Source: Parachlamydiales bacterium (lineage in GTDB: Bacteria > Chlamydiota > Chlamydiia > Chlamydiales > SM23-39). From it: a stretch of 64,000 nt of DNA. Positions 7,132 through 53,363 of this stretch are shown here, in pieces (the first letter of the stretch is position 1; every line of letters begins with the position of its first letter). The notes below the pieces were generated by a model. That model made no database searches. It was not told where the DNA came from and saw only the letters and a program-made list of their open reading frames with translations. The stretch spans positions 1 through 64,000 of the forward strand of contig JBNLAH010000003.1 of assembly GCA_050302075.1 (NCBI GenBank), in the 5' to 3' direction. The position numbers were made by a program, and so were the translations under genes.

Positions 7132-7245
7132 TAGAAACATTTCAGATGAGCTGTTAAATAATAGCCCAGACATTATAATTTATAGCTCAGGATCTTCACA
7201 GCAATGCTGATCCTGCAAAATAATCCAAGCTTGCATGGAATTTAT

Positions 7246-8199: not shown

Positions 8200-8252
8200 C
8201 AGGGAAAAAAATCTTCTAACTATGTATAAATAAATAGTAGGAGCAATTATTT

Positions 8253-9122
8253 ATGCGTTTAAAAAAAATATTAAAATTCTTTTACCTTTCATTTGCACTT
8301 ATTTTCCTAACAGGATGCGAAACAAACATGCCAATTGTTAATAATGTTGACGAACGTGAAGCAAATGAAATTATTGTATATTTAGCAAAAAATAATGTTG
8401 AAGCTCAAAAATCCCCTTCTTCAGCTGGAGAAATCGCGGGAGCTGGCGCTTCAAATATGTGGAACATCATAGTTAATGAAAGCGACTCAGTAAAAGCTAT
8501 GGCTTTATTAAATGAAGTTGGCCTTCCAAGAAGACAAGGGACTAATTTGCTTGAGTTATTTGCTAAATCTGGACTGATGTCATCTGACAGAGAAGAAACG
8601 ATTAGGTACCATGCTGGCTTAGCTGAAGAATTGAAAAATACCATTCGTAAAATGGATGGTGTATTAGATGCTGATGTACAAATTTCTTTCCCATTAGAGG
8701 AACCACTTCCAGGTGAAGCTCCCCCAAAAATCACAGCTGCAATTTATGTAAAACATCAAGGTGTACTGGACAATCCAAACAATCATTTGGAAAGCAAAAT
8801 TAAGCGTTTGGTTGCAGGCAGCATCCCTAAATTAGAATACGACAGCGTGTCTGTTATATCAGATAGATCAAGGTTTATGGCTTGGGCAGATGTTAAAGAA
8901 GAAGCGCAAGCGAGAGACATGGAAAAAGACTATGTAAAGCTATGGTCTGTTACAATGAGCAGACAGTCTGTAGGAGCATTTCGTACAATATTCTTTTTTA
9001 TGCTGATCATTATTTTTATACTTGGAGCTGCTCTTATTTGGATTACTTATAGCTTTTATCCTCAGATTTTTCAAAAAATTTTAAAAATAAAAAATGTTAT
9101 CCCAACTAAGAAAAATAAATAG
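8253..9122 (+). CDS. sctJ: T3SS inner-ring lipoprotein SctJ/CdsJ
   Basis: Lipobox LTGC, EREANEI, GLPR, MDGVLDADVQISFP, C-terminal TM. Confidence 0.95.
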   Translation: MRLKKILKFFYLSFALIFLTGCETNMPIVNNVDEREANEIIVYLAKNNVEAQKSPSSAGEIAGAGASNMWNIIVNESDSVKAMALLNEVGLPRRQGTNLLELFAKSGLMSSDREETIRYHAGLAEELKNTIRKMDGVLDADVQISFPLEEPLPGEAPPKITAAIYVKHQGVLDNPNNHLESKIKRLVAGSIPKLEYDSVSVISDRSRFMAWADVKEEAQARDMEKDYVKLWSVTMSRQSVGAFRTIFFFMLIIIFILGAALIWITYSFYPQIFQKILKIKNVIPTKKNK

Positions 9123-9965
9123 ATGAGAAAATCGTCTTATATTGTATTAAAAAGTATTTTAAATACCTCTCAAAGTTTTGAGAGGCTTACTCCTTTTTTA
9201 GATGACATATATTTAAGTAAACTAGTTTCGCTAGATGCTCCTAAATCTTTTTCCTATAAGCATTTTTTCACAGAAAATATTTTCAACCATGTTCACTATT
9301 CATGGCTAATTCCTACTCTAAAAAACTTAAAAGAAGATTTAAGTTTTTGCATAGCTTCTTTGCCTGAAAAAATGCGCGTAAAGCTAAGTAGACAATTTAA
9401 TATAGAACCCTATCCTAATGAAATTACAGACACTGCAAAAGAGTATATCCATTTAATTTTTTTAAACTCGCTTTTAGGAGAAGAAGATACGATCCTGCCG
9501 ATTCAATACCTTGAGTACTCCCCTATAAACACCTTGGCATCTAAAACAAAAGAAAACCTAATTCAAGTTATCGATTATTTAGCTCTTTTTGACCTTTCTA
9601 AAGAGATTAGAAAGATCCTCAACACAAATACAATAAAGAAAATCTATTCTTTTCTAACCGACAAAGAAAAAAAGTTCTTAAAAAAAACTCAGTCTTTAAA
9701 TGACCCTGTCTCCTTCAGTTCTTTATTAGAAAAGTGGGATGGAACTAAAGAAAGCTTCAGAAAAATCTTACATAAAAAAGGCTTATATAGATTTGGCCTT
9801 GCTTTATGTGGATCTCATCCAGACCTAATTTGGTATATTTGTCACCTTTTAGATGTTGGCAGAGGTGCTAGCTTAATGAAAATGTGTGAAAAAAAGGTAA
9901 ACCCTGTAATATCAGATACTATACAGTCACATATTTTAGAAATATTAGACATATTAAAGGCCTAA
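9123..9965 (+). CDS. T3SS SctK-position protein (chlamydial gene between sctJ and sctL)
   Basis: Synteny; HYSWLIP and LDVGRG motifs typical of the chlamydial orthologue. Confidence 0.7.
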   Translation: MRKSSYIVLKSILNTSQSFERLTPFLDDIYLSKLVSLDAPKSFSYKHFFTENIFNHVHYSWLIPTLKNLKEDLSFCIASLPEKMRVKLSRQFNIEPYPNEITDTAKEYIHLIFLNSLLGEEDTILPIQYLEYSPINTLASKTKENLIQVIDYLALFDLSKEIRKILNTNTIKKIYSFLTDKEKKFLKKTQSLNDPVSFSSLLEKWDGTKESFRKILHKKGLYRFGLALCGSHPDLIWYICHLLDVGRGASLMKMCEKKVNPVISDTIQSHILEILDILKA

Positions 9966-9968
9966 TTT

Positions 9969-10598
9969 ATGAAATTTTTTTCTCTTGTAAAAGATGGTGA
10001 GCTCCATACTGCTCCTGGAACTAAAGTTGTACCTAAGGAAGAACTAGAGTCATTGATTGATTCTGCGAAACTATTAGAGAAAGTCGACCACGAAATGAAA
10101 GAGTATCGCAAAGAAGTTTTAAAAGAATGTGAAAATCTAAAAAAAGAAGCACACGAAGAAGGTTTTCAGGAGGGATTAAAGAGATTCAATGAAGCCACTT
10201 TAAAGTTAAACCAAGAAAGTAAAAAAATTCATGATGACATCCAAAAAAAAATAACTCCTTTGACAATGCAGGCAGCTAGAAAAATTCTTGGGGAAGAGCT
10301 GAAATTAAATCCTAAGCGAATAGTTGAAATTGTATCTCAGGCGCTAAAGCCAATTACATCTCACAAATACGTTAAAATTTTTGTAAATAAAGCTGATCTA
10401 GAAATTTTGGATAAAGAAAAGGAGAACATAAAAAAGATATTAGAGCAAGTTGATACGTTTTCTTTGCAAGAAAGATCAGATATCGAACCTGGTGGTTGTA
10501 TTATAGAGACAGAAGCTGGTATTATTAATGCCCAGTTAGAGAATCAGTGGCGAGCTTTAGAAGCTGCGTTTGAATCATTTTTAAAACAGCAACAATAA
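9969..10598 (+). CDS. sctL: T3SS stator SctL (FliH/YscL family)
   Basis: MKFFSL, EEGFQEG, PGGCIIETEAGIINAQL. Confidence 0.93.
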   Translation: MKFFSLVKDGELHTAPGTKVVPKEELESLIDSAKLLEKVDHEMKEYRKEVLKECENLKKEAHEEGFQEGLKRFNEATLKLNQESKKIHDDIQKKITPLTMQAARKILGEELKLNPKRIVEIVSQALKPITSHKYVKIFVNKADLEILDKEKENIKKILEQVDTFSLQERSDIEPGGCIIETEAGIINAQLENQWRALEAAFESFLKQQQ

Positions 10599-11386
10599 TG
10601 TCTTATCGAAAATTTTTTATTTTTTTATTTCTAATTCTAAGCTTTTCGGCGGTGGCACAGGAAGCCCCTACCACAGATCTTATGGCACAACTACAAAGTC
10701 AGGCCAATCAAGTCGCATTTGAAGGTCCTTCGGTCATAACCAAAATGACCATACTAGCGGGCATAGCGATACTGCCTTTCTTAATAATGCTTTTAACCTC
10801 TTATGTTAAAATTGTAATAGTGTTGGCGCTTTTAAGAAACGCTCTTGGAGTACAACAATCCCCTCCCAACCAAGTTATTAATGGAATCGCTTTAATGCTA
10901 ACTGTCTATGTAATGTTTCCAACTGGATATGCAATGTACCAAGCATCTGAAAATGTGATAAAACAATCGCCTCCGGAAATTGTTTCAGCTCAAACTCCAG
11001 CTTACTTAATTAACGTAATTGACGCAGGGAAAGAACCTTTAAGGCAATTTTTAATTCGTAATTCTTTGCAAAAAAGCACAAGATCATTTTACCAGATTGC
11101 TTATAGGCTGTTTCCAGAGCCCTTTAAAGAGTCTTTAAAGTCCTCTGATTTTATAATATTAGTTCCATCGTTTATTACTACTCAGCTAAAAGCTGCTTTT
11201 GAAATTGGTGTACTAATTTATTTGCCCTTCTTTGTGATTGACCTTGTAACTTCCAACATCTTACTTGCAATGGGAATGATGATGTTATCTCCACTTACAA
11301 TTGCCCTTCCAATTAAGCTACTGTTACTTGTGATAATTGATGGTTGGACATTATTGGTTCAAGGTCTCATTTTGACCTTTAAATAG
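10598..11386 (+). CDS. sctR: T3SS export apparatus SctR
   Basis: LRNALGVQQSPPNQ, AFEIGVLIYLPF, AMGMMMLSP. Confidence 0.96.
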   Translation: MSYRKFFIFLFLILSFSAVAQEAPTTDLMAQLQSQANQVAFEGPSVITKMTILAGIAILPFLIMLLTSYVKIVIVLALLRNALGVQQSPPNQVINGIALMLTVYVMFPTGYAMYQASENVIKQSPPEIVSAQTPAYLINVIDAGKEPLRQFLIRNSLQKSTRSFYQIAYRLFPEPFKESLKSSDFIILVPSFITTQLKAAFEIGVLIYLPFFVIDLVTSNILLAMGMMMLSPLTIALPIKLLLLVIIDGWTLLVQGLILTFK

Positions 11387-11397
11387 GTATAAAGAAC

Positions 11398-11670
11398 ATG
11401 TTATTTTTAAACGAAATATACCAGTTAACTTATCAAGCACTTTTGCTTATCTTAATATTATCTGGTCCACCTATCTTGGTGAGCATGATATTTGGTTTAA
11501 TGGTTGCTATTTTTCAAGCTGCGACTCAGATTCAAGAACAAACACTTTCTTTTACAGTGAAACTGTTTGCCGTTGTTTTCACATTGATAGCTCTTGGAGG
11601 CTGGCTAGGGGCACAAATTATTAATTTTGCCAATACAATTTTTAACAACTTCCCTAATTGGAGACCATAA
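11398..11670 (+). CDS. sctS: T3SS export apparatus SctS
   Basis: FQAATQIQEQTLSFTVKL. Confidence 0.96.
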   Translation: MLFLNEIYQLTYQALLLILILSGPPILVSMIFGLMVAIFQAATQIQEQTLSFTVKLFAVVFTLIALGGWLGAQIINFANTIFNNFPNWRP

Positions 11671-12525
11671 GTGAATGGAGCTATGTCTTCAACTGATTCA
11701 TATTTATCGCTTATACTAAATATCCCAAATATCTCTCCTATATCCGTTTTAGGATATTTTTTTCTGGCGATGTTTAGAATAGTTCCAATTATAGTCCTTG
11801 CACCTTTTTTAGGAGGTAAAAACCTCCCTAATCCTATTAAAATTATGTTTGCAATAAGCTTAACTACAATCATCTTACCTGAAATAGTGCTTCAAGGTTC
11901 AAAAGAGCTTTTATTTGATATGCGGTTTGTGGGACTTGGCCTAAAGGAATTACTGATTGGAGCAATGCTGGGATTTCTTGTTGCTATTCCTTTTTACATC
12001 GCTCAGAATTCTGGTACATTAGTAGATCACATGCGTGGAGCATCTTCTTTGCAAGTATCCGATCCAACTACACAAGTACAAACGAGTTCCATTGGTATTT
12101 TTTATAATTATATATTAATAGCAGTCTTTTTTGCCGTTGACGGCCCTTTTATTTTCTTTAATACATTAATTCAATCGTTTCAATTAGTTCCTGTTACAGA
12201 TTTAGTTAACCCTGCCTTTTTTTCTTTAAAAATACCACTTTGGCAGATGATTATTTCTTTGTTTAATCACATAATGTCTATGGCAATACAACTTGCAGCT
12301 CCTTGTATAGTCGGAATACTTATGGCAGAGATGTTTTTAGGTATTGCTAACCGCCTTGCGCCACAAGTGCAAATTGTTTTTTTAGGTATGCCACTTAAAT
12401 CATGGCTAGGAATATTCTGTCTTTTGATTGCTTGGTATTTTATTATACAGCAGTTAGGAAAAGAGTCATTGAACTGGATCAAGACCTTAGACCAAATGAT
12501 AGCAAGAATACCTAAAGCTACTTAA
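11671..12525 (+). CDS. sctT: T3SS export apparatus SctT
   Basis: APFLG, DHMRG, NRLAPQVQ; multiple TM segments. Confidence 0.94.
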   Translation: MNGAMSSTDSYLSLILNIPNISPISVLGYFFLAMFRIVPIIVLAPFLGGKNLPNPIKIMFAISLTTIILPEIVLQGSKELLFDMRFVGLGLKELLIGAMLGFLVAIPFYIAQNSGTLVDHMRGASSLQVSDPTTQVQTSSIGIFYNYILIAVFFAVDGPFIFFNTLIQSFQLVPVTDLVNPAFFSLKIPLWQMIISLFNHIMSMAIQLAAPCIVGILMAEMFLGIANRLAPQVQIVFLGMPLKSWLGIFCLLIAWYFIIQQLGKESLNWIKTLDQMIARIPKAT

Positions 12526-12621
12526 AGCTGCGTATGTTTATAACAATCAATTTAGCTCTAATGATATTAGAAAATAAAATCTAAAAATATTAAAATGAGA
12601 AAAATTTAATAAGTAAAACAT

Positions 12622-13257
12622 ATGAGCTCAATTCAAATCGCCAACTATTTTATTGCACTTTTAATGATCTGTAATCCCATTGGAGTACTACCAATTTTTT
12701 TAAAATTAACAGAAACTGATACTTACCAAGAAAGAAGAGCCACTTCAGTAAAAGCTGCAATAGCTGTTTTTTTCATCTTGCTTGGATCAGCATGGCTTGG
12801 GATCCCTCTTTTACATATTTTAGGAATTAGAATCGCTCCTTTTCAATTTACAGGAGGATTAGTGGTGTTACTCTTAGCTCTCTCAATGTTAAGAGCAGAC
12901 GATACTAGGTATAAACAAACAACAGAAGAGAAAAAAGAATCCGTTCAAAAAGAATCTGTCGCAATTACTCCATTAGCTATTCCTTTGATTGCAGGCCCTG
13001 GGTCTATTAGTTCTATCATTACAACTAAATCAATATATCCAGGAATGGACAGTACTTTAATATTATCGCTAATTATTTTGGGAGTATCATTTTTAATGGG
13101 TTCATTCCTATTTTTTGCATCCAAAGTAGAAGATGTCTTAGGTAGGGTTGGAATAAATATATTCACAAGAATCGGAGCTTTAATTGTCGCTTCAAATGCC
13201 CTTGGCACACTTGAGGGGGCGCTTAAAGAAATGTTTCCGTTTTTAACGGGTGGCTAA
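12622..13257 (+). CDS. MarC family membrane protein
   Basis: NPIG..PIF, PLAIPLIAGPGSI. Confidence 0.9.
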   Translation: MSSIQIANYFIALLMICNPIGVLPIFLKLTETDTYQERRATSVKAAIAVFFILLGSAWLGIPLLHILGIRIAPFQFTGGLVVLLLALSMLRADDTRYKQTTEEKKESVQKESVAITPLAIPLIAGPGSISSIITTKSIYPGMDSTLILSLIILGVSFLMGSFLFFASKVEDVLGRVGINIFTRIGALIVASNALGTLEGALKEMFPFLTGG

Positions 13258-14439
13258 TTTTTTTGTGACACTTAAAACTTTATCAGCAAATATATCCATT
13301 TGTTCTAGCGTATTGTAAATACCAACAGAGGCTCTAGCGACCGAGGTTTCATTTAGTGTTTTTAAATAAGGCTGGGCACAAAGATGTCCAGTTCTAATTG
13401 AAACCCCTTCAAAGTCTAGGAAAGTTGCTAGATCAAGAGGATGAATTGAATCAATTTTAAATGTCACAATTGATTTTCTAGTGTCTGATTCGCCGATAAG
13501 TTTTAAACCATCTATTCCAGACAAGTTTTTCAAGAGCCGAGCAATAAGCCTCTCTTCATGAGTTGATATGTTGTCTACTCCAATCATTTGAAGAAGTTTT
13601 ATAGATTCATGAAAAGCTATAACTTCTGCTATAGCAGGAGTTCCAGATTCAAACTTCATAGGAGCTGGCTGACATGTAAAACCCCCGAGATATACTGTCT
13701 GAATCATATCTCCTCCCCCATTGACCGGGTTCATTTGTTCCAGAAGGCTTTTTTTTGCATAAAGTACCCCTACGCCAAATGGACCATACACTTTATGAGC
13801 TGAAAAGCAGTAAAAATCGGCATCGAGATCTGTCACGTCAACTTTCATGTGCCCAACAGCTTGAGCTCCATCAATCAAGACTTTTGCATTGTAGGCATGT
13901 GCTTTTTCTATGATATGTTTAACAGGGTGGCACGTTCCTGTTACATTTGATACATGAGCCAATGCAACAATCTTAACTCTAGGTGTTAATAATTTTTCAA
14001 ATTCACTAATTACTAACTCCCCTTTTTCATCTGCTGGAATAAACTTTAAGGTAAGTTTTTTTTCCCTAGCCAACATCTGCCAAGGAACCAAATTTGAATG
14101 GTGTTCCATTGTTGTTAAAATAACTTCATCACCTTCCTCTAAGAAATTTCCGTAAGATTTCGCCACCAAGTTAATTGATTCAGTGGTATTTTTTGTAAAA
14201 ACAATCTCTTCGTCTGAGCTGGCCTGAATAAATGCCTTTATTAGAGATCTTGTCTCAAAGTAGCTCTGAGAAGCTTCTTGAGACAACTTATGCAAAGACC
14301 TATGTACTGTCGCACAAAAATTTTGATAAAAAGAAGCTAACTTATTCACCATGCAAGAAGGTTTTAAACTGGTTGCAGCCGTATCTAAATAGATTCCATC
14401 TTTGGATTGTGGGAATTCTTTTTTAATTAGCTCTAACAT
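13243..14439 (-). CDS. sufS: Cysteine desulfurase SufS
   Basis: YLDTAATS, EHHSN, FSAHKVYGP, RTGHLCAQP. Confidence 0.93.
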   Translation of the reverse strand: MLELIKKEFPQSKDGIYLDTAATSLKPSCMVNKLASFYQNFCATVHRSLHKLSQEASQSYFETRSLIKAFIQASSDEEIVFTKNTTESINLVAKSYGNFLEEGDEVILTTMEHHSNLVPWQMLAREKKLTLKFIPADEKGELVISEFEKLLTPRVKIVALAHVSNVTGTCHPVKHIIEKAHAYNAKVLIDGAQAVGHMKVDVTDLDADFYCFSAHKVYGPFGVGVLYAKKSLLEQMNPVNGGGDMIQTVYLGGFTCQPAPMKFESGTPAIAEVIAFHESIKLLQMIGVDNISTHEERLIARLLKNLSGIDGLKLIGESDTRKSIVTFKIDSIHPLDLATFLDFEGVSIRTGHLCAQPYLKTLNETSVARASVGIYNTLEQMDIFADKVLSVTKKLATR

Positions 14440-15680
14440 ATAGTCTCTTTTAAAGAAGGAAAAATTAAGTCATTTAGAATTTCATCACAAAATGCCTTGA
14501 TCATCATTTGCTTTGCCTTTTCTTCTGTAATGCCTCGAGATCTTAAATAAAACATTTCTGTGTCAGAAAGCTTTCCAAACGTGGCCCCATGAGAAGCCTT
14601 AACATCATCTGCAAAAATCTCTAAGTTAGGTTTTGAGTACGCAGAAGCTCCATCATTTAATATTAAATTTTTATTCAATTGATAAGCTTCTGTTTTTTGG
14701 GCGATGTCCTCGACGTATATCTTCCCTTCAAAACTTGATTTAGAGTTATCATCAAGTACACATTTAAATAACTGTGAAGATGTACAATCAGGAGCTAAAT
14801 GCTCAATTAAAACATTTGTATGTGCATTTTTTTCTTCTTTCAGATAATTAAGACCTTTTAGGCTTGCTTTTGAATTTTTTTCAGTTAACGATACTCTATA
14901 ATCTCTTCTAATAGTTTTTGAGCCTTTTGAAAAATCTACACAATTAACTTCAGCTCTACTTTTCACAAGAAACCTGTAATCGGCCAAATACCAGTAATCA
15001 TTTGCGACCTCAGATATCTCATTCAAAGTTAATTTAGCTCCTTTTTCAACTACATAGTCCATATAGGGCATACAAAGATGTCTTTGGGCTTGCAGTTGAT
15101 TAGTTGTATGAATAATGGAAATTTCAGCATTCTTACCAATATATGCATGAACTCTAGGGAATGAAATCGACGGGCCATTATCAAAATTATCGGTCAAATT
15201 AATAATCTGCAAAGGTTTGGTAATTTTTATATCTTTTGGCAAGTAGATAAAAATCCCATTTTCATGGAAACTTGCATTTAGCAAGGCGAATGGATTTGTT
15301 TCATTTTTTAAATTGATTTGAAGCCTATTTTGCAAGAATATTGCGTAATCACTCATTGCCCCATTAAGTGAATTTATAGATATTCGAGAATCCCATTTAC
15401 TTAAAGCAGGATCAAACTTACCATTTACAAGCACTAAGTAAGAATCTTCTAAGCCATCAATTATATATTTTTCAATTTCTTGTTTTTGCAAGCTTTTACA
15501 AACTGCCATTTCAAAATCATGTGCATATAATTTTGCAAGTGGTATGTACCTAAAGGCCTCATTTTTACGGCTTGGTGATCCTAAGTTCCTAAATGAATCA
15601 AAAGCTTTTTTTCTAAATGACATTCGGAGATCATTTGGAATCAATTCCTCTTTTAGAAATTCAAATGCTATATCACTCAT
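14433..15680 (-). CDS. sufD: Fe-S assembly protein SufD
   Basis: KPNLEIFADDVKASHGAT, FYLRSRGI. Confidence 0.93.
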   Translation of the reverse strand: MSDIAFEFLKEELIPNDLRMSFRKKAFDSFRNLGSPSRKNEAFRYIPLAKLYAHDFEMAVCKSLQKQEIEKYIIDGLEDSYLVLVNGKFDPALSKWDSRISINSLNGAMSDYAIFLQNRLQINLKNETNPFALLNASFHENGIFIYLPKDIKITKPLQIINLTDNFDNGPSISFPRVHAYIGKNAEISIIHTTNQLQAQRHLCMPYMDYVVEKGAKLTLNEISEVANDYWYLADYRFLVKSRAEVNCVDFSKGSKTIRRDYRVSLTEKNSKASLKGLNYLKEEKNAHTNVLIEHLAPDCTSSQLFKCVLDDNSKSSFEGKIYVEDIAQKTEAYQLNKNLILNDGASAYSKPNLEIFADDVKASHGATFGKLSDTEMFYLRSRGITEEKAKQMMIKAFCDEILNDLIFPSLKETIC

Positions 15681-16426
15681 GCATATGCCTCTTGAGATAC
15701 CCAGTCATAGCCTTTCTCTTCTAGTTTTTTTGCTAGTTTATAGTCCCCAGACATAACAATCTTACCGTCCATCATAACATGCACAAAATCAGGTACAATA
15801 TATTCTAATAGCCTCTGATAATGTGTTATCAACAAAAGTCCATTATCATTTGAGCGAAAGTTATTTACTCCATTAGCTACAATTTTCATAGCATCAATAT
15901 CCAATCCTGAATCCGTTTCATCTAAAACTGCAAGAGTTGGATTCAACAAAGACATTTGTAAAATCTCAGATCTTTTTTTCTCTCCACCAGAAAATCCATC
16001 ATTTACAGAACGATTAATGAAATCATCCGTAATTTGAAGTTGACTAGATTTGATTTTTAAAAGTTTCTCGAAATCCTCTTTTGAAATTTCTTTTTGATCA
16101 TTTGCTTTTAAGTGACTTTGGTAAGCCTCATACAAAAATTGGTATGTTGATACTCCAGGTATTTCTACTGGATATTGGAAACTCATGAAAAGACCTAAAT
16201 GAGATCTTTCCTCCGGCTCTAATTCTAAAATATTTTGTCCCTTAAAAAACACATTCCCGCTTACTTCATAAGATGGGTGACCAGCTAAAATTTTTGCCAA
16301 AGTAGATTTTCCAGCTCCATTAGGCCCCATAATCGCATGTACTTCTCCTTTTTGGATTGATAAAGCAAAATCCTTCAAAATATGCTTTTCTTCAATATAG
16401 GCATTTAACTCAGTAATTTCTAACAT
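15677..16426 (-). CDS. sufC: Fe-S assembly ATPase SufC
   Basis: GPNGAGKSTL, FSGGEKKR, LDETDSGLD; likely start ATG 16426. Confidence 0.96.
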   Translation of the reverse strand: MLEITELNAYIEEKHILKDFALSIQKGEVHAIMGPNGAGKSTLAKILAGHPSYEVSGNVFFKGQNILELEPEERSHLGLFMSFQYPVEIPGVSTYQFLYEAYQSHLKANDQKEISKEDFEKLLKIKSSQLQITDDFINRSVNDGFSGGEKKRSEILQMSLLNPTLAVLDETDSGLDIDAMKIVANGVNNFRSNDNGLLLITHYQRLLEYIVPDFVHVMMDGKIVMSGDYKLAKKLEEKGYDWVSQEAYA

Positions 16427-17862
16427 CAGCCAACCGACCCCTCTAATTTTAGTGTTAATAGTTTTTGAGCCTCTGTTGCAAACTCTAAAGGAAGCTCTTT
16501 TATAACTTCTTTGCAAAATCCATTCACAATCATATTGATAGCATCTTCGAGTGAAATCCCCCTGCTTTGCAGATAAAATAGCTGCTCTTCATTCATTTTC
16601 GAAGTAGATGCCTCATGCTCAACTTGAGCCGAGCTATTTTCTACTTCAATATATGGGAAAGTGTTAGCCGAGCAAGTATTTCCAACTAGCATAGAATCAC
16701 ATTGAGTAAAATTTCTTGAATTTTCAGCTTTCTTTGAAATTTTAACTAATCCTCTATAGCTATTATGAGAAGTATCTGCAGAAATCCCCTTCGATATAAT
16801 TGTTGACTTAGTATTCTTACCGATATGAATCATTTTAGTTCCTGTATCAGCTTGCATTTTTCCATTTGTAAGCGCAACGGAATAAAACTCCCCTACAGAA
16901 TTGTCCCCTTTTAATATACAGCTTGGATATTTCCAAGTTATTGCAGCTCCTGCCTCAACTTGTGTCCACGAAATTTTTGAACTCTCTCCTTTGCAAAGGC
17001 CTCTTTTAGTAACAAAATTATAAACTCCACCTAGGCCAGTCTCAGGATCTCCTGAATACCAATTTTGGACAGTTGAATATTTAATTTCCGCTCGATCTTT
17101 AGCTATCAGTTCAACCACTGCTGCGTGGAGTTGGTTAGTGTCATATGCAGGAGCCGTACATCCTTCCAAGTAACTTACATAAGAGTCATCTTCTGCTATA
17201 ATTAATGTTCTTTCAAATTGTCCTGTTTCTTTTTCATTGATCCTAAAATACGTAGAAAGCTCCACTGGACAACGAACTTTTTTTGGAACGTACACAAAAG
17301 AACCGTCAGAGAAAACAGCTGAATTAAGTGCTGTAAAAAAGTTATCACCTATAGGGACGACACTTCCTATGTACTGCTTTACTAAATCAGGATATTTTTG
17401 CAATGCTTCTGAAATTGAACATAGTACCACTCCAGCTTCCTCAAGTGTTTTTTGGAATGTAGTTCCAATTGAAACTGAGTCAAAAACGACATCAACTGCA
17501 ACATTTGTAAGTCTTTTTTGCTCTTCTAGAGGAATGCCCAATTTGTTGAAAGTGCGCAAAAGTTCAGGATCAACCTGATCTAAACTTTCTAACCTTGGCT
17601 TTGACTTTGGCTCTGAGTAGTAAGAAATGTCTTGATAGTTTATCAATGGATATTTGACATTTGGCCATGTAGGCTCTTTCATCTCCTTCCATTTTTTGTA
17701 GGCTTTTAGCCGAAAATCAAGCATGAAATCAGGCTCATTTTTCTTAGCTGAAATAGCTTTTATAACATCCTCATTGAGTCCTTTTTCAAATTTATCAGAT
17801 TCAATTGGTGTTACAAATCCATATTTGTATTCTCGATGATTAAAAGAATTGTCTGTAGGCAT
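16426..17862 (-). CDS. sufB: Fe-S assembly protein SufB
   Basis: [26 protein letters not shown]; likely start ATG 17862. Confidence 0.97.
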
Positions 17863-42286: not shown

Positions 42287-43324
42287 TTAGAAATCGAATC
42301 TAGCACCAACATTTAAACCGTGAGACAAGACTGATCTTCTCCAGTTAAATAAATCTGTTGGGACTGTTGCATCTGTTGAAACATTGTACTCTTCTAAGTA
42401 AGAGACAAAGTTTGGCCAGTAGTGCAATTCATATCCAAGCTTTAGTCCAAAATAGTAACAGCATTTACAAAAATGCTTTCCCCAAGTAAGACCTAAGCCT
42501 GCTTGAGCATTCATTTGGAAATCTGTGTCTTTATAGTTTTGAGTAAGTGTTGATGTACTTGCAAAGTTAGTTGCAGTATCAAACAACGTTGACTCATCTC
42601 TGATTCTATAGTTTTTTTGCCCGATCAATGCTGAGAATGAAGAGTTTCCATATAAGCCGAATCCCCAACATAAATCAACATTCATGTCCATACCAGTGTG
42701 TAGACCAACACCTAAATTAAAATGATGGTTTACATCAACATGGTGTGTTTGTGGGAAACCTACAACAGAGTTCTCTGCTACATAGTCAACTCTTAAATCT
42801 GTTTTTACCCAAGCAAACCTAACACCTACAAATGGGCTAAAAGAATATCTTGAGCATGTGTATACTGTATTAAAATCAAAGTCCAACATTCTCATTTTGA
42901 AGCGGTTTTTTGCACTAGCAGAAAGACTTAAAAGTCCTGTTGTGTCCCCTTCAAATGGATCGTTTAAAAGCCAGTAAGCAGATATTGAATTGCTGATATT
43001 AGAACTTGATGTCACGTTCCCAACTGAAAATGAATCTGTTCCATCAGTGCTATACTGGGTGTACTTTGCTGTTCCAAAAGAGCAGTTAGAAAAGTAAACT
43101 CCCAAAGCTACTCTAAATCCTGAATCAGCAGACAAAGGCACATTATGGATATTTGAGCTATATGTATTTATAGCATTTCCTGTCCCTATAGAAAATGGCG
43201 GAACTCTGTACCTTTCACTTGCATATGGTGTTAAGCTATATGTTTTAAGGTATAAATACTCACCTTCCACAAATGCCCAGCCACATTTCACAGGTAGTGG
43301 AAGACCAAAACAACATCTTTTGTA
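42287..43324. repeat. ~1.04-kb near-identical direct repeat, copy A
   Basis: Matches 45042..46079 at offset 2755; only three substitutions spotted. Confidence 0.92.
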
Positions 43325-43516
43325 ATTTTCATCACAGCCACACCTTGGCTCATAACATAAACTGCTACTTTTACTAGCTTGCCAGTCTTGCATATCAACT
43401 TTATCGTTGTTTTTTGACCTTGCTGATATGTCAAATTCAAAATCATTATCTTCTGCAAAACCGAAAGTCGCAAAAAACAATCCAATAGCTAGAGGAACTT
43501 TAAAAAACTGTTTCAT
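42287..43516 (-). CDS. MOMP-like (Lpg1974/Legionella MOMP-type) beta-barrel porin, copy 1
   Basis: Signal peptide, EYLYLK, SGFRV.LG, PFVGVR, GYE..YW, C-terminal GLNVGARFDF. Confidence 0.85.
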   Translation of the reverse strand: MKQFFKVPLAIGLFFATFGFAEDNDFEFDISARSKNNDKVDMQDWQASKSSSLCYEPRCGCDENYKRCCFGLPLPVKCGWAFVEGEYLYLKTYSLTPYASERYRVPPFSIGTGNAINTYSSNIHNVPLSADSGFRVALGVYFSNCSFGTAKYTQYSTDGTDSFSVGNVTSSSNISNSISAYWLLNDPFEGDTTGLLSLSASAKNRFKMRMLDFDFNTVYTCSRYSFSPFVGVRFAWVKTDLRVDYVAENSVVGFPQTHHVDVNHHFNLGVGLHTGMDMNVDLCWGFGLYGNSSFSALIGQKNYRIRDESTLFDTATNFASTSTLTQNYKDTDFQMNAQAGLGLTWGKHFCKCCYYFGLKLGYELHYWPNFVSYLEEYNVSTDATVPTDLFNWRRSVLSHGLNVGARFDF

Positions 43517-43613
43517 CACCTTTTGTAACCTTATTTCTTAAATTTTACGCTTGGTTTAAGTTACTTAATATAAAGTAAAAATTTCAATAAATTATTTCCT
43601 TTAAACAAACTCC

Positions 43614-44879
43614 TTAAAAATCAAAACGAATTCCTGCATTCAGGCCATGTGAAAATACAGTTCTTTTCCAAACGAAAGTATCTCTTGGAATCGAATTAGC
43701 ACCTACTGCATTAGAATTTAAATAAGTTAAAAAATTTGGCCAAAATATTGCTTCATAGCCGACCTTGATACCGGCATAATAAGCACATTTACAAAAATGA
43801 GCTCCCCAGTGGAATCCACATCCAAAAGAACCCGAAAATTGAACATCTGTTTGTTTATAATTTTCTGTTACTCTTGAACGAACCGGGCCTGAATCATTTA
43901 GTAAAAGGATATCGCGTATTCGAAAGTTTCTTTGTCCAACTATAGCAGAAAATGATGACGAAGTATAAAAATTCAAATTCCAGCATAGATCTAAATTCAT
44001 ATCAATTCCAGTATGAAACCCAGCTCCTAAGTTAAAATGCTGGCTGACATCAATATGGTGGCCTTGTTCAAAGTCTAAAGTTGGATCAATATATTTATAA
44101 TCTACGAATAAATCTGTTTTAACCCATGCTACTCTAGCCCCAACAAATGGATTAATTGAAAGATTAGAGCAAGTGATTGCTCTGTAGAAATCAAAGTCTA
44201 TTACCTTCATCCTGAATCTATTGGCAGCATTACTGTTTACTTGGGTGACATTATTTAAATCAGTTGGGCCACCTCTTGTCGCAAGCAGCCAAAAAATAGT
44301 TAGACCAGATCTATTGGGAGCCGCCGCTGAATCTATATTGTCTACAGAAACACTGGCCTTTCCATCTGTTTCAAATTGGGTATATTTGGCTGTAAAGTAA
44401 GAGCAGGAAGAAAAATATATTCCCAAGCATGCTCTATAACCTGAATTAGCATCTAAAGGGACAAATAAATCCTCTGAGTCATATTCAGTTGCACTTCCAA
44501 TCGTTGGAGGAGGAACCTGCCTCCTAACTCCTAAAAATGGAGTTAAGCTATATGTTTTAAGGTATAGATATTCACCTTCGAGAAAGACCATACCACACCT
44601 TGCCGGTAAAGGCAGTGGGTAACAACACCTTGTATAAGGCTCACAGCAGCTTTTTGTCATACATAGAGAAGATTCTTTTTGCTTAGTTTGTTTTAATTTT
44701 TTTTCACTTCTTTCACTGCTTTCCTTTTTTTTAACATCTTCAATTGAAAAAAAACCTTTGTCTGACAAGTCTGCATTCTCAGTCAGTGTTTTATCCGGAG
44801 CTTTATTTTCTACTTTGATATCGACTTCTTCTGCAAAAATTGCACTAAAAAAGAAAAATGCTGTAAATAGTGTTCTCAT
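43614..44879 (-). CDS. MOMP-like beta-barrel porin, copy 2 (divergent)
   Basis: Same motif set; C-terminal GLNAGIRFDF. Confidence 0.85.
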   Translation of the reverse strand: MRTLFTAFFFFSAIFAEEVDIKVENKAPDKTLTENADLSDKGFFSIEDVKKKESSERSEKKLKQTKQKESSLCMTKSCCEPYTRCCYPLPLPARCGMVFLEGEYLYLKTYSLTPFLGVRRQVPPPTIGSATEYDSEDLFVPLDANSGYRACLGIYFSSCSYFTAKYTQFETDGKASVSVDNIDSAAAPNRSGLTIFWLLATRGGPTDLNNVTQVNSNAANRFRMKVIDFDFYRAITCSNLSINPFVGARVAWVKTDLFVDYKYIDPTLDFEQGHHIDVSQHFNLGAGFHTGIDMNLDLCWNLNFYTSSSFSAIVGQRNFRIRDILLLNDSGPVRSRVTENYKQTDVQFSGSFGCGFHWGAHFCKCAYYAGIKVGYEAIFWPNFLTYLNSNAVGANSIPRDTFVWKRTVFSHGLNAGIRFDF

Positions 44880-44997
44880 AGCTACCTTTAGTATTTAAAA
44901 AAGACAAATACTAAAAGTAAGTTAGGGGTCAATTTATTTCAAAGAAGATCTTATAATTTTTATTTTAAACTTATGAGAAAATTTATTAGACAAAGAC

Positions 44998-45026
44998 AAA
45001 AAGGGACCCTAAGAAAAAGGGTCCCT
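44998..45026 (-). terminator. Intrinsic terminator after porin copy 3
   Basis: AGGGACCCT-N7-AGGGTCCCT stem with U tract. Confidence 0.75.
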
Positions 45027-45041
45027 ATGCTTAAAGTTACG

Positions 45042-46079
45042 TTAGAAATCGAATCTAGCACCAACATTTAAACCGTGAGACAAGACTGATCTTCTCCAGT
45101 TAAATAAATCTGCTGGGACTGTTGCATCTGTTGAAACATTGTACTCTTCTAAGTAAGAGACAAAGTTTGGCCAGTAGTGCAATTCATATCCAAGCTTTAG
45201 TCCAAAATAGTAACAGCATTTACAAAAATGCTTTCCCCAAGTAAGACCTAAGCCTGCTTGAGCATTCATTTGGAAATCTGTGTCTTTATAGTTTTGAGTA
45301 AGTGTTGATGTACTTGCAAAGTTAGTTGCAGTATCAAACAACGTTGACTCATCTCTGATTCTATAGTATTTTTGCCCGATCAATGCTGAGAATGAAGAGT
45401 TTCCATATAAGCCGAATCCCCAACATAAATCAACATTCATGTCCATACCAGTGTGTAGACCAACACCTAAATTAAAATGATGGTTTACATCAACATGGTG
45501 TGTTTGTGGGAAACCTACAACAGAGTTCTCTGCTACATAGTCAACTCTTAAATCTGTTTTTACCCAAGCAAACCTAACACCTACAAATGGGCTAAAAGAA
45601 TATCTTGAGCATGTGTATACTGTATTAAAATCAAAGTCCAACATTCTCATTTTGAAGCGGTTTTTTGCACTAGCAGAAAGACTTAAAAGTCCTGTTGTGT
45701 CCCCTTCAAATGGATCGTTTAAAAGCCAGTAAGCAGATATTGAATTGCTGATATTAGAACTTGATGTCACATTCCCAACTGAAAATGAATCTGTTCCATC
45801 AGTGCTATACTGGGTGTACTTTGCTGTTCCAAAAGAGCAGTTAGAAAAGTAAACTCCCAAAGCTACTCTAAATCCTGAATCAGCAGACAAAGGCACATTA
45901 TGGATATTTGAGCTATATGTATTTATAGCATTTCCTGTCCCTATAGAAAATGGCGGAACTCTGTACCTTTCACTTGCATATGGTGTTAAGCTATATGTTT
46001 TAAGGTATAAATACTCACCTTCCACAAATGCCCAGCCACATTTCACAGGTAGTGGAAGACCAAAACAACATCTTTTGTA
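45042..46079. repeat. ~1.04-kb near-identical direct repeat, copy B
   Basis: Matches 42287..43324. Confidence 0.92.
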
Positions 46080-46301
46080 GTCTTCATCACAGCCACATCT
46101 TGGCTCAAAACATAATGAATCATCTTCTTGATTCATCGTTTGTCTATTACCGTTCATCATGTCACGATTATTCATATTACGTGACTTTTTGTTTGATCTT
46201 GCGACCACGGCCCCACTTTCATAATCATTACTTTGAGCAAAAGTTAAACTCATGAAAAGAAATGAGGCTAAAAAAGGTAATTTATATAGAATACCCCTCA
46301 T
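45042..46301 (-). CDS. MOMP-like beta-barrel porin, copy 3
   Basis: Near-identical to copy 1 beyond the N-terminus; likely start ATG 46301 with GAGGAGG RBS. Confidence 0.85.
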   Translation of the reverse strand: MRGILYKLPFLASFLFMSLTFAQSNDYESGAVVARSNKKSRNMNNRDMMNGNRQTMNQEDDSLCFEPRCGCDEDYKRCCFGLPLPVKCGWAFVEGEYLYLKTYSLTPYASERYRVPPFSIGTGNAINTYSSNIHNVPLSADSGFRVALGVYFSNCSFGTAKYTQYSTDGTDSFSVGNVTSSSNISNSISAYWLLNDPFEGDTTGLLSLSASAKNRFKMRMLDFDFNTVYTCSRYSFSPFVGVRFAWVKTDLRVDYVAENSVVGFPQTHHVDVNHHFNLGVGLHTGMDMNVDLCWGFGLYGNSSFSALIGQKYYRIRDESTLFDTATNFASTSTLTQNYKDTDFQMNAQAGLGLTWGKHFCKCCYYFGLKLGYELHYWPNFVSYLEEYNVSTDATVPADLFNWRRSVLSHGLNVGARFDF

Positions 46302-46421
46302 AAAAATCCTCCTCGTTTTCTTTCCGTTTATCATAAAAAGTAATTTTATCAAGAAAAAAAATAAAAATAATTTGATATTTTTGAAAAAAATAAAATTAAA
46401 ACTACAAAAAGATAATCTAAT

Positions 46422-49253: not shown

Positions 49254-49532
49254 ATGAACTTTTATTCTTTTCCCACAGAAAGAAATCTTTTTGGCTGCCT
49301 GAGAAATCACTTTTCTATAGAAGAAAACTCTTCTGTAAATAAAGATACCATTCGTTTTGCAGCTTTTTTATTTGCAAACAAACAAAATGTTGAGCCTAAA
49401 AGAATCAGCGCTGGTGTTAGATCTGTGCTTATCAAATCTGGATTAGGTGCTGCACAAAAGAAAAGATTAGAAAATATACAGATAATTTTAGTCGAAGCTA
49501 TCAAAGATTGTGCCAAACAACAAAAAAAATAG
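49254..49532 (+). CDS. Small hypothetical protein, paralogue of 50549..50848
   Basis: Shared YSFP.E..LF.C and AIKDCA motifs. Confidence 0.7.
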   Translation: MNFYSFPTERNLFGCLRNHFSIEENSSVNKDTIRFAAFLFANKQNVEPKRISAGVRSVLIKSGLGAAQKKRLENIQIILVEAIKDCAKQQKK

Positions 49533-50548: not shown

Positions 50549-50848
50549 ATGAATCCATTACCCTCTTCGTATTCATTTCCTAGCGAGCACCAACTTTTTG
50601 ACTGTATAGCAAGCCATCCCGTGTTAGGAGATACTTCCTCTTACTTTACGAAAAGAAAAGTTACCCAGGCAGTAGTTAAGGCTTTTGCTGATAAAAAAGA
50701 CATGTCCTCTTCTGAAATTGAGCCAAGAACTACCGCCGCCATTCGTGAATCAACATTTGTAAGAGGAAATCCTAATATATCAATTAGCTTATTGGCAGTT
50801 ATGCAAATGAGTTTTGCTCAAGCTATAAAAGATTGCGCTAATAAATAA
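50549..50848 (+). CDS. Small hypothetical protein, paralogue of 49254..49532
   Basis: AAGGAG RBS; shared motifs. Confidence 0.7.
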   Translation: MNPLPSSYSFPSEHQLFDCIASHPVLGDTSSYFTKRKVTQAVVKAFADKKDMSSSEIEPRTTAAIRESTFVRGNPNISISLLAVMQMSFAQAIKDCANK

Positions 50849-50949: not shown

Positions 50950-51507
50950 TTAATCATCATCTTTAGGTCCCCAAATTTCAGCTATTATCGCAAGCGCTAT
51001 AGCACAGCATACTAACCCTGAAATTTTTAAAACTGGATTGTGATCAAGGTTACAGCATTCACAAATTGTATTATCATTACCACGCCTTTCTAAATTAACA
51101 GGGCGTCTTCTCATTTGATGACTTAAATTAGGATGTCTTTGCAAAGAAGAGCTTTCAGATTGTCCTGGATAACATTTTAGTGCGTTAAAAGCTACTTCCG
51201 AAATTTTTATTTGTTTTGGGTTAGATCCAGAAACTTCAGAAATCCCTTTAAAATTACGGTCTACTATAATTTTATCAGATCTATTAACTAATCGAACAAG
51301 AAAATTAATCCCATCAAGACTTGGATTTTCATTTAGAACTTTTATAGTTTGTTTCTCTCTATCACTAAAATCTGCAGAGTTATTTTCTATAAAACTTGCT
51401 AGCTGACTTATTACCTGATGTGCGACTTCTATCTTATATTGGGGATTTTCAAGTTCTTCTTGAATATCTATTGCAACATGACCTAACTGAGATGGCTGTA
51501 CAGACAT
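50950..51507 (-). CDS. Hypothetical protein with single C-terminal TM segment
   Basis: AGGAG RBS; C-terminal ISGLVCCAIALAIIAEIW. Confidence 0.65.
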   Translation of the reverse strand: MSVQPSQLGHVAIDIQEELENPQYKIEVAHQVISQLASFIENNSADFSDREKQTIKVLNENPSLDGINFLVRLVNRSDKIIVDRNFKGISEVSGSNPKQIKISEVAFNALKCYPGQSESSSLQRHPNLSHQMRRRPVNLERRGNDNTICECCNLDHNPVLKISGLVCCAIALAIIAEIWGPKDDD

Positions 51508-51623
51508 TTTTACTCCTAGTTTTAAAATTAATGAGTTGAATATGCTGCTGAGACTGCGTCTATTTTTTCAAGTTTTATTTAGAAGCTTAGATGTTCTTTC
51601 TAAAGGTAATTTCCATTACTTCT

Positions 51624-52616
51624 TTAAAATTCTTTAAAACTTTTTATCCAATTTATTGCCTCTTTTAAAATCTTTTCGTCATTTTTTGAGGAGACATATA
51701 AATCTGGATTGATTATTTCTGAACAAATTTTTTTATCCCAAGACGCAATTCGAGATGATGTGACAAAAAGAAGAGTCCCGTCATTAAGTTCAAACATTTT
51801 AGTACTATTAGCAAAACCAGCGGAATACTCCCCAAAGACCTTAGAAAATCTGCTTCTTAAAGCTATCGCTATGATTTCTCCTGAACTTGCTGTTGATCTA
51901 CCTATAAGGATTGCAATAATAGGCTTATTACGTTTTACCTCATAATAATTTTTATCAGGCATTGAAAGTTGAACACTGCTACCCTGTTTCACAGTCCCAT
52001 TTTCATAGGAAAACGGAATATATTTATTTTCTGAGTCAGTAAAATATCCCAATACTTTGTTTCCAGTAATTGCACCCAGCCCCAGCAACATCGGCCATAA
52101 ATTACCGCCCTTATTATTTCTTAAGTCAATAATCCAGCTATTCACATCTGTGCTGTCAATTTTCTTGATAATGTTCTGAAGATTTTGAGCATACTCTTGG
52201 TTTAATGATATATCCAAGCTTGGACACGAGGGCATGCTTATGTAACCGATTCCCTCTTCTATTAGCTTCCCTCTAATTTCATCATTTAGCAGGGAATTTC
52301 TCTGACCTACTTGGTTTGGACGAAGTATAAATCCATGCTTATCGCCAACTTTATACAGTAATTGGTTTATTATTGGATAAACTTCATCAAAGGATTGACA
52401 TAAGCTTGCCTTACCAAAAAATTCTTTCTCTATTTTCTTCCAATCAACTTGATCCTTGTAAACTGAATGCTTTTTTACAATAGAGATAACTTCATGTATA
52501 TAAGCATGCACTTTATGCCTATCAAAAATTCTTAATGAAGAAATCCAAGATAATATCCCAACTACTGATAAAGCTATCATGAAAAATAAAACATAATAGG
52601 CTTTTAAAAATTTCAT
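51624..52616 (-). CDS. S41 family peptidase, nisin resistance protein (NSR)-like, membrane anchored
   Basis: N-terminal TM, GDKH, DLRNNKGGNLWPM, TASSGE, FG..SAG, L.DG, I.PD. Confidence 0.88.
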   Translation of the reverse strand: MKFLKAYYVLFFMIALSVVGILSWISSLRIFDRHKVHAYIHEVISIVKKHSVYKDQVDWKKIEKEFFGKASLCQSFDEVYPIINQLLYKVGDKHGFILRPNQVGQRNSLLNDEIRGKLIEEGIGYISMPSCPSLDISLNQEYAQNLQNIIKKIDSTDVNSWIIDLRNNKGGNLWPMLLGLGAITGNKVLGYFTDSENKYIPFSYENGTVKQGSSVQLSMPDKNYYEVKRNKPIIAILIGRSTASSGEIIAIALRSRFSKVFGEYSAGFANSTKMFELNDGTLLFVTSSRIASWDKKICSEIINPDLYVSSKNDEKILKEAINWIKSFKEF

Positions 52617-52726
52617 AAGGTTTTACATATATTATAAATCAAAAGGTAAACATCACTAGTTGGGAATTATCTTAATTTAAATAACTTAGTTTTAATGATT
52701 AAAAAGACTTCCAATTAAAAACTATG

Positions 52727-52909
52727 TCATCGAGGGCAACGACCACTACATTCACAACTACAACCACTAGCTGTAACAATTTTAGTAGGCCCCATATCCA
52801 TTGCTTTGATCTTAATCTCTTGAATACGTAAATCAAGATCAAAAAAATCTTCATCCTTATTGAGTTCACTAATATATTCATTTTTAATAGCTATACCACG
52901 AATATCCAT
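52727..52909 (-). CDS. Putative class I lanthipeptide precursor (FDLD leader)
   Basis: GGAG RBS then ATG 52909; MDIRGIAIKNEYISELNKDEDFFDLDLRIQEIKIKAMDMGPTKIVTASGCSCECSGRCPR. Confidence 0.72.
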   Translation of the reverse strand: MDIRGIAIKNEYISELNKDEDFFDLDLRIQEIKIKAMDMGPTKIVTASGCSCECSGRCPR

Positions 52910-53207
52910 AATATTACTCCCTTGCAAATATTAAATTTTTTACCAAACAAGAACTAACGTGGACATGATTTTCTTTCTCAACTTTTTACTCAAGCTTTTT
53001 ACATTAAAAAATAATATCCGCACTTAACTCTATTAAAAAAAGCTAAGCAAAACCGACTAGATGTAACTTATTTACGAATTGAAAAAATGAAACCTGATGC
53101 ACTGGATCTCAATGGAATGCCACAGATCAAGTTACAGATTTTTTAAAGTTTCTTTGAAAGAGATTAGAAATTGCTATTTGAGTTTCTTAAATTTCAGAAA
53201 AAAGAAA

Positions 53208-53280
53208 TGAGGCTTATTGGGCTCGAACCAATGACCCTCTCCTTAAAAGGGAGATGCTCTACCAACTGAGCTAAAGCCTC
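53208..53280 (-). tRNA. tRNA-Lys (UUU)
   Basis: Cloverleaf GAGGCTT...; anticodon arm TCTCC-CTTTTAA-GGAGA; GTTCGA T-loop. Confidence 0.95.
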
Positions 53281-53288
53281 GCTTAAAC

Positions 53289-53363
53289 TGACCCCAAGGG
53301 GATTCGAACCCCTGTTGCCGGAATGAAAATCCGGTGTCCTAGGCCGGGCTAGACGATGGGGCC
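53289..53363 (-). tRNA. tRNA-Glu (UUC)
   Basis: GGCCCCATCGTCTAG...; anticodon arm CCGGA-TTTTCAT-TCCGG; GTTCGAATC. Confidence 0.95.

Follow-up and report, generated by a model that had tools for sequence, protein, structure and literature searches.

How does a small open reading frame (ORF) with the look of a lanthipeptide precursor gene come to stand beside a nisin-resistance-type protease gene, with neither LanB nor LanC next to it, in a chlamydial genome? The question is raised by a stretch of 64,000 nucleotides from a Parachlamydiales bacterium (positions 1 to 64,000 of contig JBNLAH010000003.1, assembly GCA_050302075.1; hereafter the window), in which an earlier note had marked a 60-aa ORF with a ribosome-binding site, an FFDLDL box, and a Gly-Pro ahead of a core with four Cys and five Ser/Thr, followed at 110 bp by an S41 peptidase gene with motifs like those of the nisin resistance protein NSR, the whole some 300 bp from tRNA genes. 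All of these items are present. Both genes can be assigned to families, and a relative carries an intact operon of the order lanA-lanC-lanB-S41. With moderate confidence, we read the pair in the window as this type of operon without lanC and lanB, in which the S41 peptidase would most likely serve lanthipeptide immunity or resistance. The parts of the pair are the following.

52917..52923, minus strand: Shine-Dalgarno-like AAGGGAG, 7 nt upstream of the precursor ATG, as read from the sequence
52727..52909, minus strand: 60-aa LanA-type precursor ORF (ATG at 52909, stop codon at 52727-52729), with no LanB or LanC gene beside it
52726..52743, minus strand: weak terminator-like hairpin over the precursor stop codon (7 pairs, 3 of them G-C, with a T-rich tail)
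52617..52726, minus strand: spacer of 110 bp, by coordinates, from the precursor ORF to the S41 gene
51624..52616, minus strand: NSR-type S41 peptidase (PF03572) of 330 aa, with a membrane helix at its N-terminus and without a PDZ domain

The product of the ORF is MDIRGIAIKNEYISELNKDEDFFDLDLRIQEIKIKAMDMGPTKIVTASGCSCECSGRCPR. The FFDLDL box occupies residues 22-27 within an acidic leader, Gly40-Pro41 precedes the core, and the core itself (approximately residues 42-60, about 15-19 residues) holds the four closely spaced Cys and the five Ser/Thr. The length of the ORF is no argument for a gene, because at the 33.5% G+C of this genome 60-codon frames are common; a second 60-aa frame overlaps it at 52699-52881. 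Signals around the pair are equally uninformative: the single hairpin compares with 0.7 expected in shuffled sequence and is not significant alone, and eight promoter-like sites were counted where 8.1 were expected. The G+C content of the ORF (33.9%) is close to that of the genome, and the base composition of the pair bears no foreign signature.

Family membership is a more telling test. The NCBIfam model for FDLD class I lanthipeptides, NF038155, matched the precursor at 15.3 bits (E 0.026), and in a six-frame scan of the 1.84-Mb genome the precursor was the sole match at E <= 10 among the four candidates scored (13.7 bits); the core matched no family model. We then built a LanA profile from the phylum itself. 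Thirty-eight further LanB loci (each taken with 7 kb on either side, from other genomes of the phylum) were joined with two others (L007 and L038) to give a set of 40, from which 31 small-ORF candidates were drawn; 22 of these were kept and 21 used as seeds, none of them from the genome under study (G000). The filter was a regular expression for an [FLIVM][DNE]L[DENQK] box with a Cys/Ser/Thr-rich tail. Of this genome's 14,487 six-frame ORFs (25 aa or longer), the precursor ranked first (32.1 bits, E 9e-8), with an alignment that spans the peptide from the ATG to the last Cys; the LanA of a lan cluster elsewhere in the genome came second (E 1.4e-5), and the third ORF, at E 0.14, is unrelated. 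The precursor aligns with 18 LanAs of the phylum through an M-x-I start, the DLD box and a Cys-bearing core, and its closest single relative is a LanA encoded 87 bp downstream of a LanB gene in genome G083 (36% identity over 42 aa, pairwise E 9e-7). We judge the ORF to be a gene and not a chance frame because this profile content, with its first rank genome-wide, is non-random. By this measure the ORF is a member of the FDLD-leader class I LanA family as found in the phylum, as the earlier note had proposed.

The neighboring protease can be placed with similar clarity. Peptidase_S41 (PF03572) is its sole significant Pfam domain (80.7 bits, E 1.2e-22), no PDZ domain was matched at E <= 1, and the motifs GDKH, DLRNNKGGN and TASSGE are all in place. 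The features that bear on its topology and catalysis are these.

52539..52613, minus strand: predicted membrane helix, codons 2-26 (helical by DSSP in the structure model), with Lys2 and Lys5 before it
52335..52337, minus strand: codon of His94 (in GDKH), the counterpart of SaNSR His98 in the alignment to 4Y68
51885..51887, minus strand: codon of Ser244 (in TASSGEI), the counterpart of SaNSR Ser236 (in TASSAEM) in the alignment to 4Y68

The best sequence match in the PDB is 4Y68, the structure of SaNSR, the nisin resistance protein of Streptococcus agalactiae (E 1.1e-18, residues 39-306 against 35-292), and the only other match at E <= 0.01 is one more S41 protease (E 0.0016). A structure model of the peptidase (13 homologues; predicted local distance difference test score 88.9, predicted template modelling score 0.82) likewise retrieved 4Y68 first in Foldseek (E 3.7e-23, template modelling (TM) scores 0.76/0.87, root-mean-square deviation 2.4 A), followed by the D1 processing protease 1FC7 (TM scores 0.57/0.49). 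In SaNSR, catalysis depends on Ser236 in TASSAEM and on His98, while Glu239 positions a helix, according to PMC4698656; His94, Ser244 and Glu247 of the window protease align with His98, Ser236 and Glu239, and all three are invariant in the 13 homologues. The CtpA, CtpB and CtpC models score only 45-50 bits (cut-offs 625-665) and the prc model 43.4 bits (cut-off 218.6). Two long S41 proteins encoded elsewhere in this genome pass the CT441 model (796.6 and 742.4 against 700 bits) and are ordinary Tsp, so that the gene in the window is the only one for an NSR-type protease in the genome.

We also placed the protease in a tree, with plasmid-encoded proteins of L. lactis and Enterococcus as stand-ins for NSR (the L. 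lactis protein matches 4Y68 at 5.8e-58) and the two CT441-type Tsp of this genome as outgroup. All short S41 proteins, including the L. lactis and Enterococcus plasmid proteins, form one clade (support 100/100) apart from the CT441-type Tsp, although branching inside the short-S41 clade is not resolved; the earlier note had suggested a tree of this kind. CtpA, Prc and Tsp, including CT441 of Chlamydia trachomatis, thus share the S41 catalytic fold with the window protease, which differs in having no PDZ domain and in lying across this fully supported branch. By alignment, predicted fold and tree, the window protease is NSR-type and clearly not CtpA/Prc-type, as had been proposed; the assignment is to the type and makes no claim of orthology to NSR proper. 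The N-terminal helix, with Lys2 and Lys5 before it, suggests that the protein is anchored in the inner membrane by this one helix with its catalytic domain facing the periplasm.

A precursor without modifying enzymes beside it calls for enzymes elsewhere, and a search of the whole genome for LanB and LanC, which the earlier note had suggested, found them. All strong matches lie on contig C1 and none inside the window. The genome has one LanB only, together with two LanC, in a cluster of gallidermin/nisin type with a LanA of its own. This complete class I lan cluster (L007, G000:C1:288000-307999) lies at 6892-16679 of its locus, with all genes on the minus strand, and consists of the following.

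LanA, 68 aa: passes TIGR03731 (33.4 against 29.3) and PF02052 (32.2 against 21)
first LanC, 435 aa: the LanC scores of the two LanC proteins are 135.2 and 192.9 bits
LanB, 1004 aa: PF04738 at 329 bits, PF14028 at 151.6 bits
beta-lactamase-fold protein, 460 aa
second LanC, 449 aa
AstE/AspA-type hydrolase, followed by a major facilitator superfamily transporter

The core of this LanA contains SLCTPGC, which we take to correspond to rings A/B, the part of nisin-type and gallidermin-type peptides that binds lipid II. Neither an ATP-binding cassette exporter nor a LanP is encoded near the cluster. Dehydration and cyclisation of the window precursor in trans by the LanB and LanC of contig C1 is thus possible, as the earlier note had supposed, and would presumably proceed through the FDLD-type leader. 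A tblastn search with the precursor and the C1 LanA against this genome and the S41 loci found no second copy; the best foreign match was the leader region of the LanA of genome G132 (33% over 39 aa, E 0.43).

In this genome, G132, lanA, lanC, lanB and an S41 gene follow one another in that order, and the start of the S41 gene overlaps the end of lanB. In a second species of the same genus (G274, genus g95), lanA-lanC-lanB runs to the end of a contig, and the C-terminal 87 residues of an S41 protein 93% identical to that of G132 lie at the start of another; the cores of the two LanAs differ while every Cys is kept. In the third species of the genus (G343), the S41 gene stands beside the same helix-turn-helix (HTH) gene as in G132, and the 90%-complete assembly has neither LanB nor LanC. 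At the place where lanA-lanC-lanB would lie in G343 there are 644 bp (L039, G343:C85, 10157-11823) in which we detected no LanA-like remnant. If lanC and lanB are taken out of the G132 operon, what is left is precursor, short spacer and S41 gene, and it is for this reason that we read the pair in the window as such an operon without lanCB. The earlier note had offered the relic of a deleted cluster as one option, which accords with the intact operon in G132 (and, across a contig gap, in G274).

S41 genes of this type turned up in 6 of the 400 genomes scored from the phylum sample (this genome included; one more was unscored) and, within family f7, in 5 of 129, or eight genomes altogether; none was found in 60 relatives. 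The nearest homologues of the window protein are 72-73% identical to it. Pattern searches gave 137 matches in genome contigs and 261 in metagenome contigs, of which none was confirmed, and a second scan of the metagenome contigs with alignment yielded one locus, L043. This locus encodes the closest S41 (72% identity); a Fic gene lies upstream of it and a NUDIX gene downstream, and the locus shows no LanA-like ORF. LanB is present in four of the eight S41 genomes (G000, G132, G274 and G346) against 34 of 301 sampled genomes of the phylum as background, a comparison that involves few and related genomes. In G346, LanC and LanB lie 58 kb from the S41 gene on the same contig, while G135, G190, G442 and G343 have the S41 without LanB, and three of them (G343, G135 and G190) without LanC as well. 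On the S41-only loci (L039-L043, L100 and L101) the LanA profile found nothing at E < 1. An 87-aa ORF upstream of the S41 gene in G442 was considered as a LanA and rejected: it is not LanA-like, and its sequence reads as a SEC-C-type zinc motif. Outside the phylum, no lanthipeptide gene is annotated within 5-9 kb of the S41 genes carried on plasmids of Streptomyces, Spirosoma, L. lactis and Enterococcus.

Taken together, these observations lead us to the following model. The 60-aa ORF would be a genuine class I LanA gene of the FDLD-leader type of environmental chlamydiae, and precursor and S41 gene would be the remainder of a lanA-lanC-lanB-S41 operon, probably through deletion, or have been split from one. 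Any dehydration and cyclisation of the precursor would be performed in trans by the LanB and LanC of contig C1. The predicted periplasmic topology would put the catalytic domain where lipid II-directed lanthipeptides act, and there the S41 protease would most likely cut ring-bearing lanthipeptides that reach the periplasm, be they the cell's own or a competitor's, and thereby protect the lipid II cycle. We favor immunity or resistance for the S41 gene because it survives alone in G343 and in genomes without lanthionine enzymes.

A number of results weigh against this model. The precursor stays below the curated cut-off of NF038155 (15.3 against 20 bits), and the phylum LanA profile is an incompletely independent test, since its seed filter looked for the same traits that had drawn attention to the ORF; nonetheless, position within 7 kb of LanB decided which seeds were taken, and the alignment runs through the entire peptide. 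No orthologue of the precursor was found in 60 relatives, where the best matches (E 9.8e-4 and weaker) fall inside frames of about 300 aa, and both a word-indexed search of 5.8 billion proteins and an exhaustive HMMER search of 1.84 billion representative proteins returned the peptide itself alone. The exact peptide is likewise absent from the contig with the closest S41. Among runs recorded as RNA, none contains the stretch with the precursor and the S41 gene. The likeness of the precursor leader to that of the C1 LanA is weak (pairwise E 0.24), and recognition by the C1 LanB is not assured. An NSR-type S41 lies within 7 kb in only one of the 40 LanB loci, which makes the link a rare one. Within the short-S41 clade the window protease is not sister to the Firmicutes NSR pair, and the nisin ring D/E pocket of SaNSR, Asn172-Met173-Ile174, reads Asn-Leu-Trp in the window protease; Trp174 and Met176 do not vary among the 13 homologues, so that the pocket is kept within the group and unlike that of SaNSR. 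Finally, neither a Peptidase_S8 (PF00082, the LanP type) nor a C39 peptidase was found in this genome, so some other protease must remove the leaders, which leaves room for a role of the S41 protease in processing.

None of the three points which the earlier note had named as telling against its proposal was borne out: LanB and LanC are encoded in this genome, the FDLD/Cys pattern recurs in LanAs of the phylum, and the peptidase lies outside the CtpA/Prc group and occurs with a lanthipeptide precursor in the G132 operon.

One alternative takes the ORF as an inert leftover of a lost lanA-lanC-lanB-S41 operon, with the S41 gene kept for resistance or for an unrelated periplasmic task and an adjacency that has no function. 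Such a leftover would leave no orthologue in any search, as was found; the closest S41 homologue has no such ORF, the S41 of G343 has outlived the loss of the lan genes, and the variable segment at whose edge the pair lies, some 6.9 kb long, is absent from the nearest relative, G004. An inert frame would hardly be expected, however, to retain a start codon, a good Shine-Dalgarno sequence, the full leader box and all ring-forming residues, or a G+C content that fits the genome, and the same genome can supply a LanB and two LanC. We regard this alternative as rather unlikely.

The main rival to immunity or resistance is the idea that the S41 protease is a maturation enzyme, which removes the leader or trims the C-terminal tail after export, while the pair borrows LanB and LanC; in G132 and G274 it would act likewise on the LanA of the operon. 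The absence of subtilisin-type LanP and C39 peptidases from this genome speaks for it, as does the bareness of chlamydial lan loci, in which only LanB (40 of 40 loci; L007, L038 and L044-L081) and LanC (35 of 40) are conserved, and the S41 of G132 is the sole protease in its operon. The two complete precursors that adjoin an S41 gene also share an ending of Gly, a basic residue, Cys and then (Pro)Arg, a likeness that with n=2 is anecdotal and from which the G274 precursor departs by a Ser in place of the basic residue. Processing cannot be a general requirement, however, as an S41 of this kind is missing from the 7 kb on either side in 39 of the 40 LanB loci; the S41 occurs without LanB in four genomes, the closest relative lies between Fic and NUDIX genes, and the one characterised relative cuts the finished lantibiotic near its C-terminus and not at the leader (PMC4698656 and PMC4828448). 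This role we consider unlikely.

A broader proposal would be that an NSR-type protease has been recruited as a working part of chlamydial class I systems, be it for periplasmic self-immunity or for processing on the export side, and that the pair is a small cassette, inserted by tRNA-Lys, which uses LanB and LanC elsewhere to make a second, structurally different lanthipeptide; we put this forward only tentatively. That the ORF is open by mere chance in A+T-rich spacer DNA and bears a coincidental FDLD-like box, as the commonness of 60-codon frames, the overlapping frame and the NCBIfam match below cut-off might suggest, is highly improbable given its first rank with a profile drawn from foreign genomes, aligned from ATG to last Cys, its being the sole match to NF038155 genome-wide and its distance of 110 bp from the only NSR-type protease gene of the genome.

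The setting of the pair bears on its origin, and here two tRNA genes are of note.

53208-53280, minus strand: tRNA-Lys(UUU), 298 bp from the start of the precursor ORF
53289-53363, minus strand: tRNA-Glu(UUC), which with tRNA-Lys forms a conserved boundary to the variable segment with the pair

G004 keeps the gene order tRNA-Gly, rpsB, tsf, frr, tRNA-Glu, tRNA-Lys (frr 74% identical), and the same tRNA pair lies beside frr in G004, G003 and G008. In G004 an array of outer-membrane-protein paralogues follows directly after tRNA-Lys, whereas in the window about 6.9 kb are interposed, with genes for a photolyase, a Mut7-C RNase, a histidine phosphatase and small unknown proteins besides the S41 gene and the precursor. 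An exact 15-nt direct repeat (46255-46269 and 53200-53214) brackets this segment, its second copy overlapping the 3' end of tRNA-Lys; by our own estimate about 0.2 such repeats are expected by chance in the 9.3 kb searched. No integrase gene was seen in the segment. tRNA-Glu is the carrier of the co-substrate of LanB enzymes. Its nearness to the pair is best regarded as coincidental, since relatives without the precursor and S41 genes have the two tRNA genes at the same place.

Other features of this region may be recorded here. Directly downstream of the S41 gene, two paralogous ORFs of 92 and 99 aa (49254-49532 and 50549-50848, both plus strand), with similar N- and C-termini and no family match, are interleaved with acidic or Cys-rich unknown proteins of 256 aa and 185 aa; the 185-aa protein has a hydrophobic stretch at its C-terminus. 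Three paralogues from the Legionella_OMP family (PF05150), each about 410-436 aa long, lie at 42287-46352 on the minus strand, and the syntenic place in G004 holds a similar array of at least four. In G346 (L040, G346:C12, 5953-14972), the S41 gene lies between a PBP2 gene and rpsB-tsf-frr, at the other end of the same conserved block.

The genome assembly comprises 1.84 Mb in 89 contigs and is 96.2% complete at 33.5% G+C. Its chlamydial identity is accepted, with four full-length TLC nucleotide transporters and the CT441-model proteins among the cues. Over 51000-53262 the window is identical to a separately assembled Logan contig (7,213 nt), and the junction of precursor and S41 is therefore not specific to one assembler; the run behind this contig may be the source sample. 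A second, unrelated run, labeled as a mangrove metagenome, matches the window solely in the tRNA region, with a single contig of 151 nt identical to 53088-53238, upstream of tRNA-Lys, which hints at the same or a very close organism at low depth in that sample.

As for chlamydial LanB loci in general, LanB was detected in 34 of the 301 genomes sampled, and lanthipeptide systems are thus not rare in this phylum, contrary to what the earlier note had supposed; nisin-like clusters in Chlamydiota are already mentioned, in a single sentence of PMC12506125. The loci contain almost no dedicated protease or transporter. Two or three LanC copies are present in 15 of the 40, and a LanD-like flavoprotein (PF02441) in eight, and some LanAs end in SFCC. 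In 19 of the 40 the LanA profile found no precursor within 7 kb, and distant precursors, or precursors of another type, may be common. No pattern across the 40 loci pairs a second LanC with a second LanA, and six loci have two LanC with one LanA. In one locus (L070, G210:C1:368000-385000, about 10087-13875), a single LanB and a single LanC are accompanied by six LanA-like genes in tandem, whose leaders are nearly identical and whose cores differ. In G266 (G266:C1:449092-450975), a LanB match with three TGA and one TAG internal stops, within a complete-looking contig of 2.85 Mb, is probably a decayed gene.

How does the pair compare with known systems? With FDLD/FNLD precursors (NF038155, TIGR03731, PF02052) the ORF shares an acidic leader, an F-D-L-D box about 15-20 residues before a Ser/Thr/Cys core, and a genome with LanB and LanC; it differs in its sub-threshold score, in a short core with four close Cys that has no family match, and in its distance from LanB and LanC. 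A bacteriocin immunity gene that is kept after the biosynthetic genes have been lost is known as an orphan immunity gene. Genus g95 offers a likeness, with lanA-lanC-lanB-S41 in two species and the S41 alone beside the same HTH gene in the third; in G000, unlike such cases, the precursor is retained too, and the immunity role of its S41 is a predicted one.

NSR itself adjoins a BceAB-type transporter and a two-component system. The window protease resembles SaNSR (4Y68) and the L. lactis plasmid NSR in its length (about 320-330 aa), single N-terminal helix, S41 core without PDZ, conserved His/Ser dyad and helix-positioning Glu, and it falls in the same short-S41 clade as the L. lactis protein. 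It is only 25-28% identical, its activity is a predicted one, its pocket reads Asn-Leu-Trp in place of Asn-Met-Ile, and its host has an envelope of Gram-negative type. Proteases of the window type, moreover, adjoin a precursor (G000) or sit in a lanACB operon (G132), whereas NSR is described, in PMC4828448, from non-producers, producers protecting themselves by LanI and LanFEG. A 2024 survey (PMC11251773) describes nisinase-related S41 proteases as widespread and of unknown function. Within the open-access literature we found no NSR-type or S41 protease described inside a lanthipeptide cluster or beside a precursor. A lanthionine synthetase group is reported for Ca. Algichlamydia (PMC11317633), and for sponge chlamydiae the main text of PMC9666466 mentions only 'RiPP-like' clusters (RiPP, a peptide made on the ribosome and modified after translation); in the open-access literature, with PMC9666466 and PMC12506125 taken by their main texts, we found no detailed analysis of chlamydial lanthipeptide clusters. 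The parts of the system are therefore familiar ones (LanA, NSR-type S41, LanB and LanC), while the arrangement and the host appear to be new and the function is a prediction.

An NSR-type protease that is found both in a lan operon and beside a stray precursor provides a concrete and testable case for a role of such proteases in producers. The practical yield is modest: one new short core peptide with four Cys, together with a set of precursors from chlamydiae that could be expressed in other hosts. For the biology of the group, protist-infecting and obligately intracellular chlamydiae have minimal lanthipeptide systems, conserved only in LanA, LanB and LanC and lacking a dedicated exporter or LanP, and these systems bear on competition or host defence inside shared host cells.

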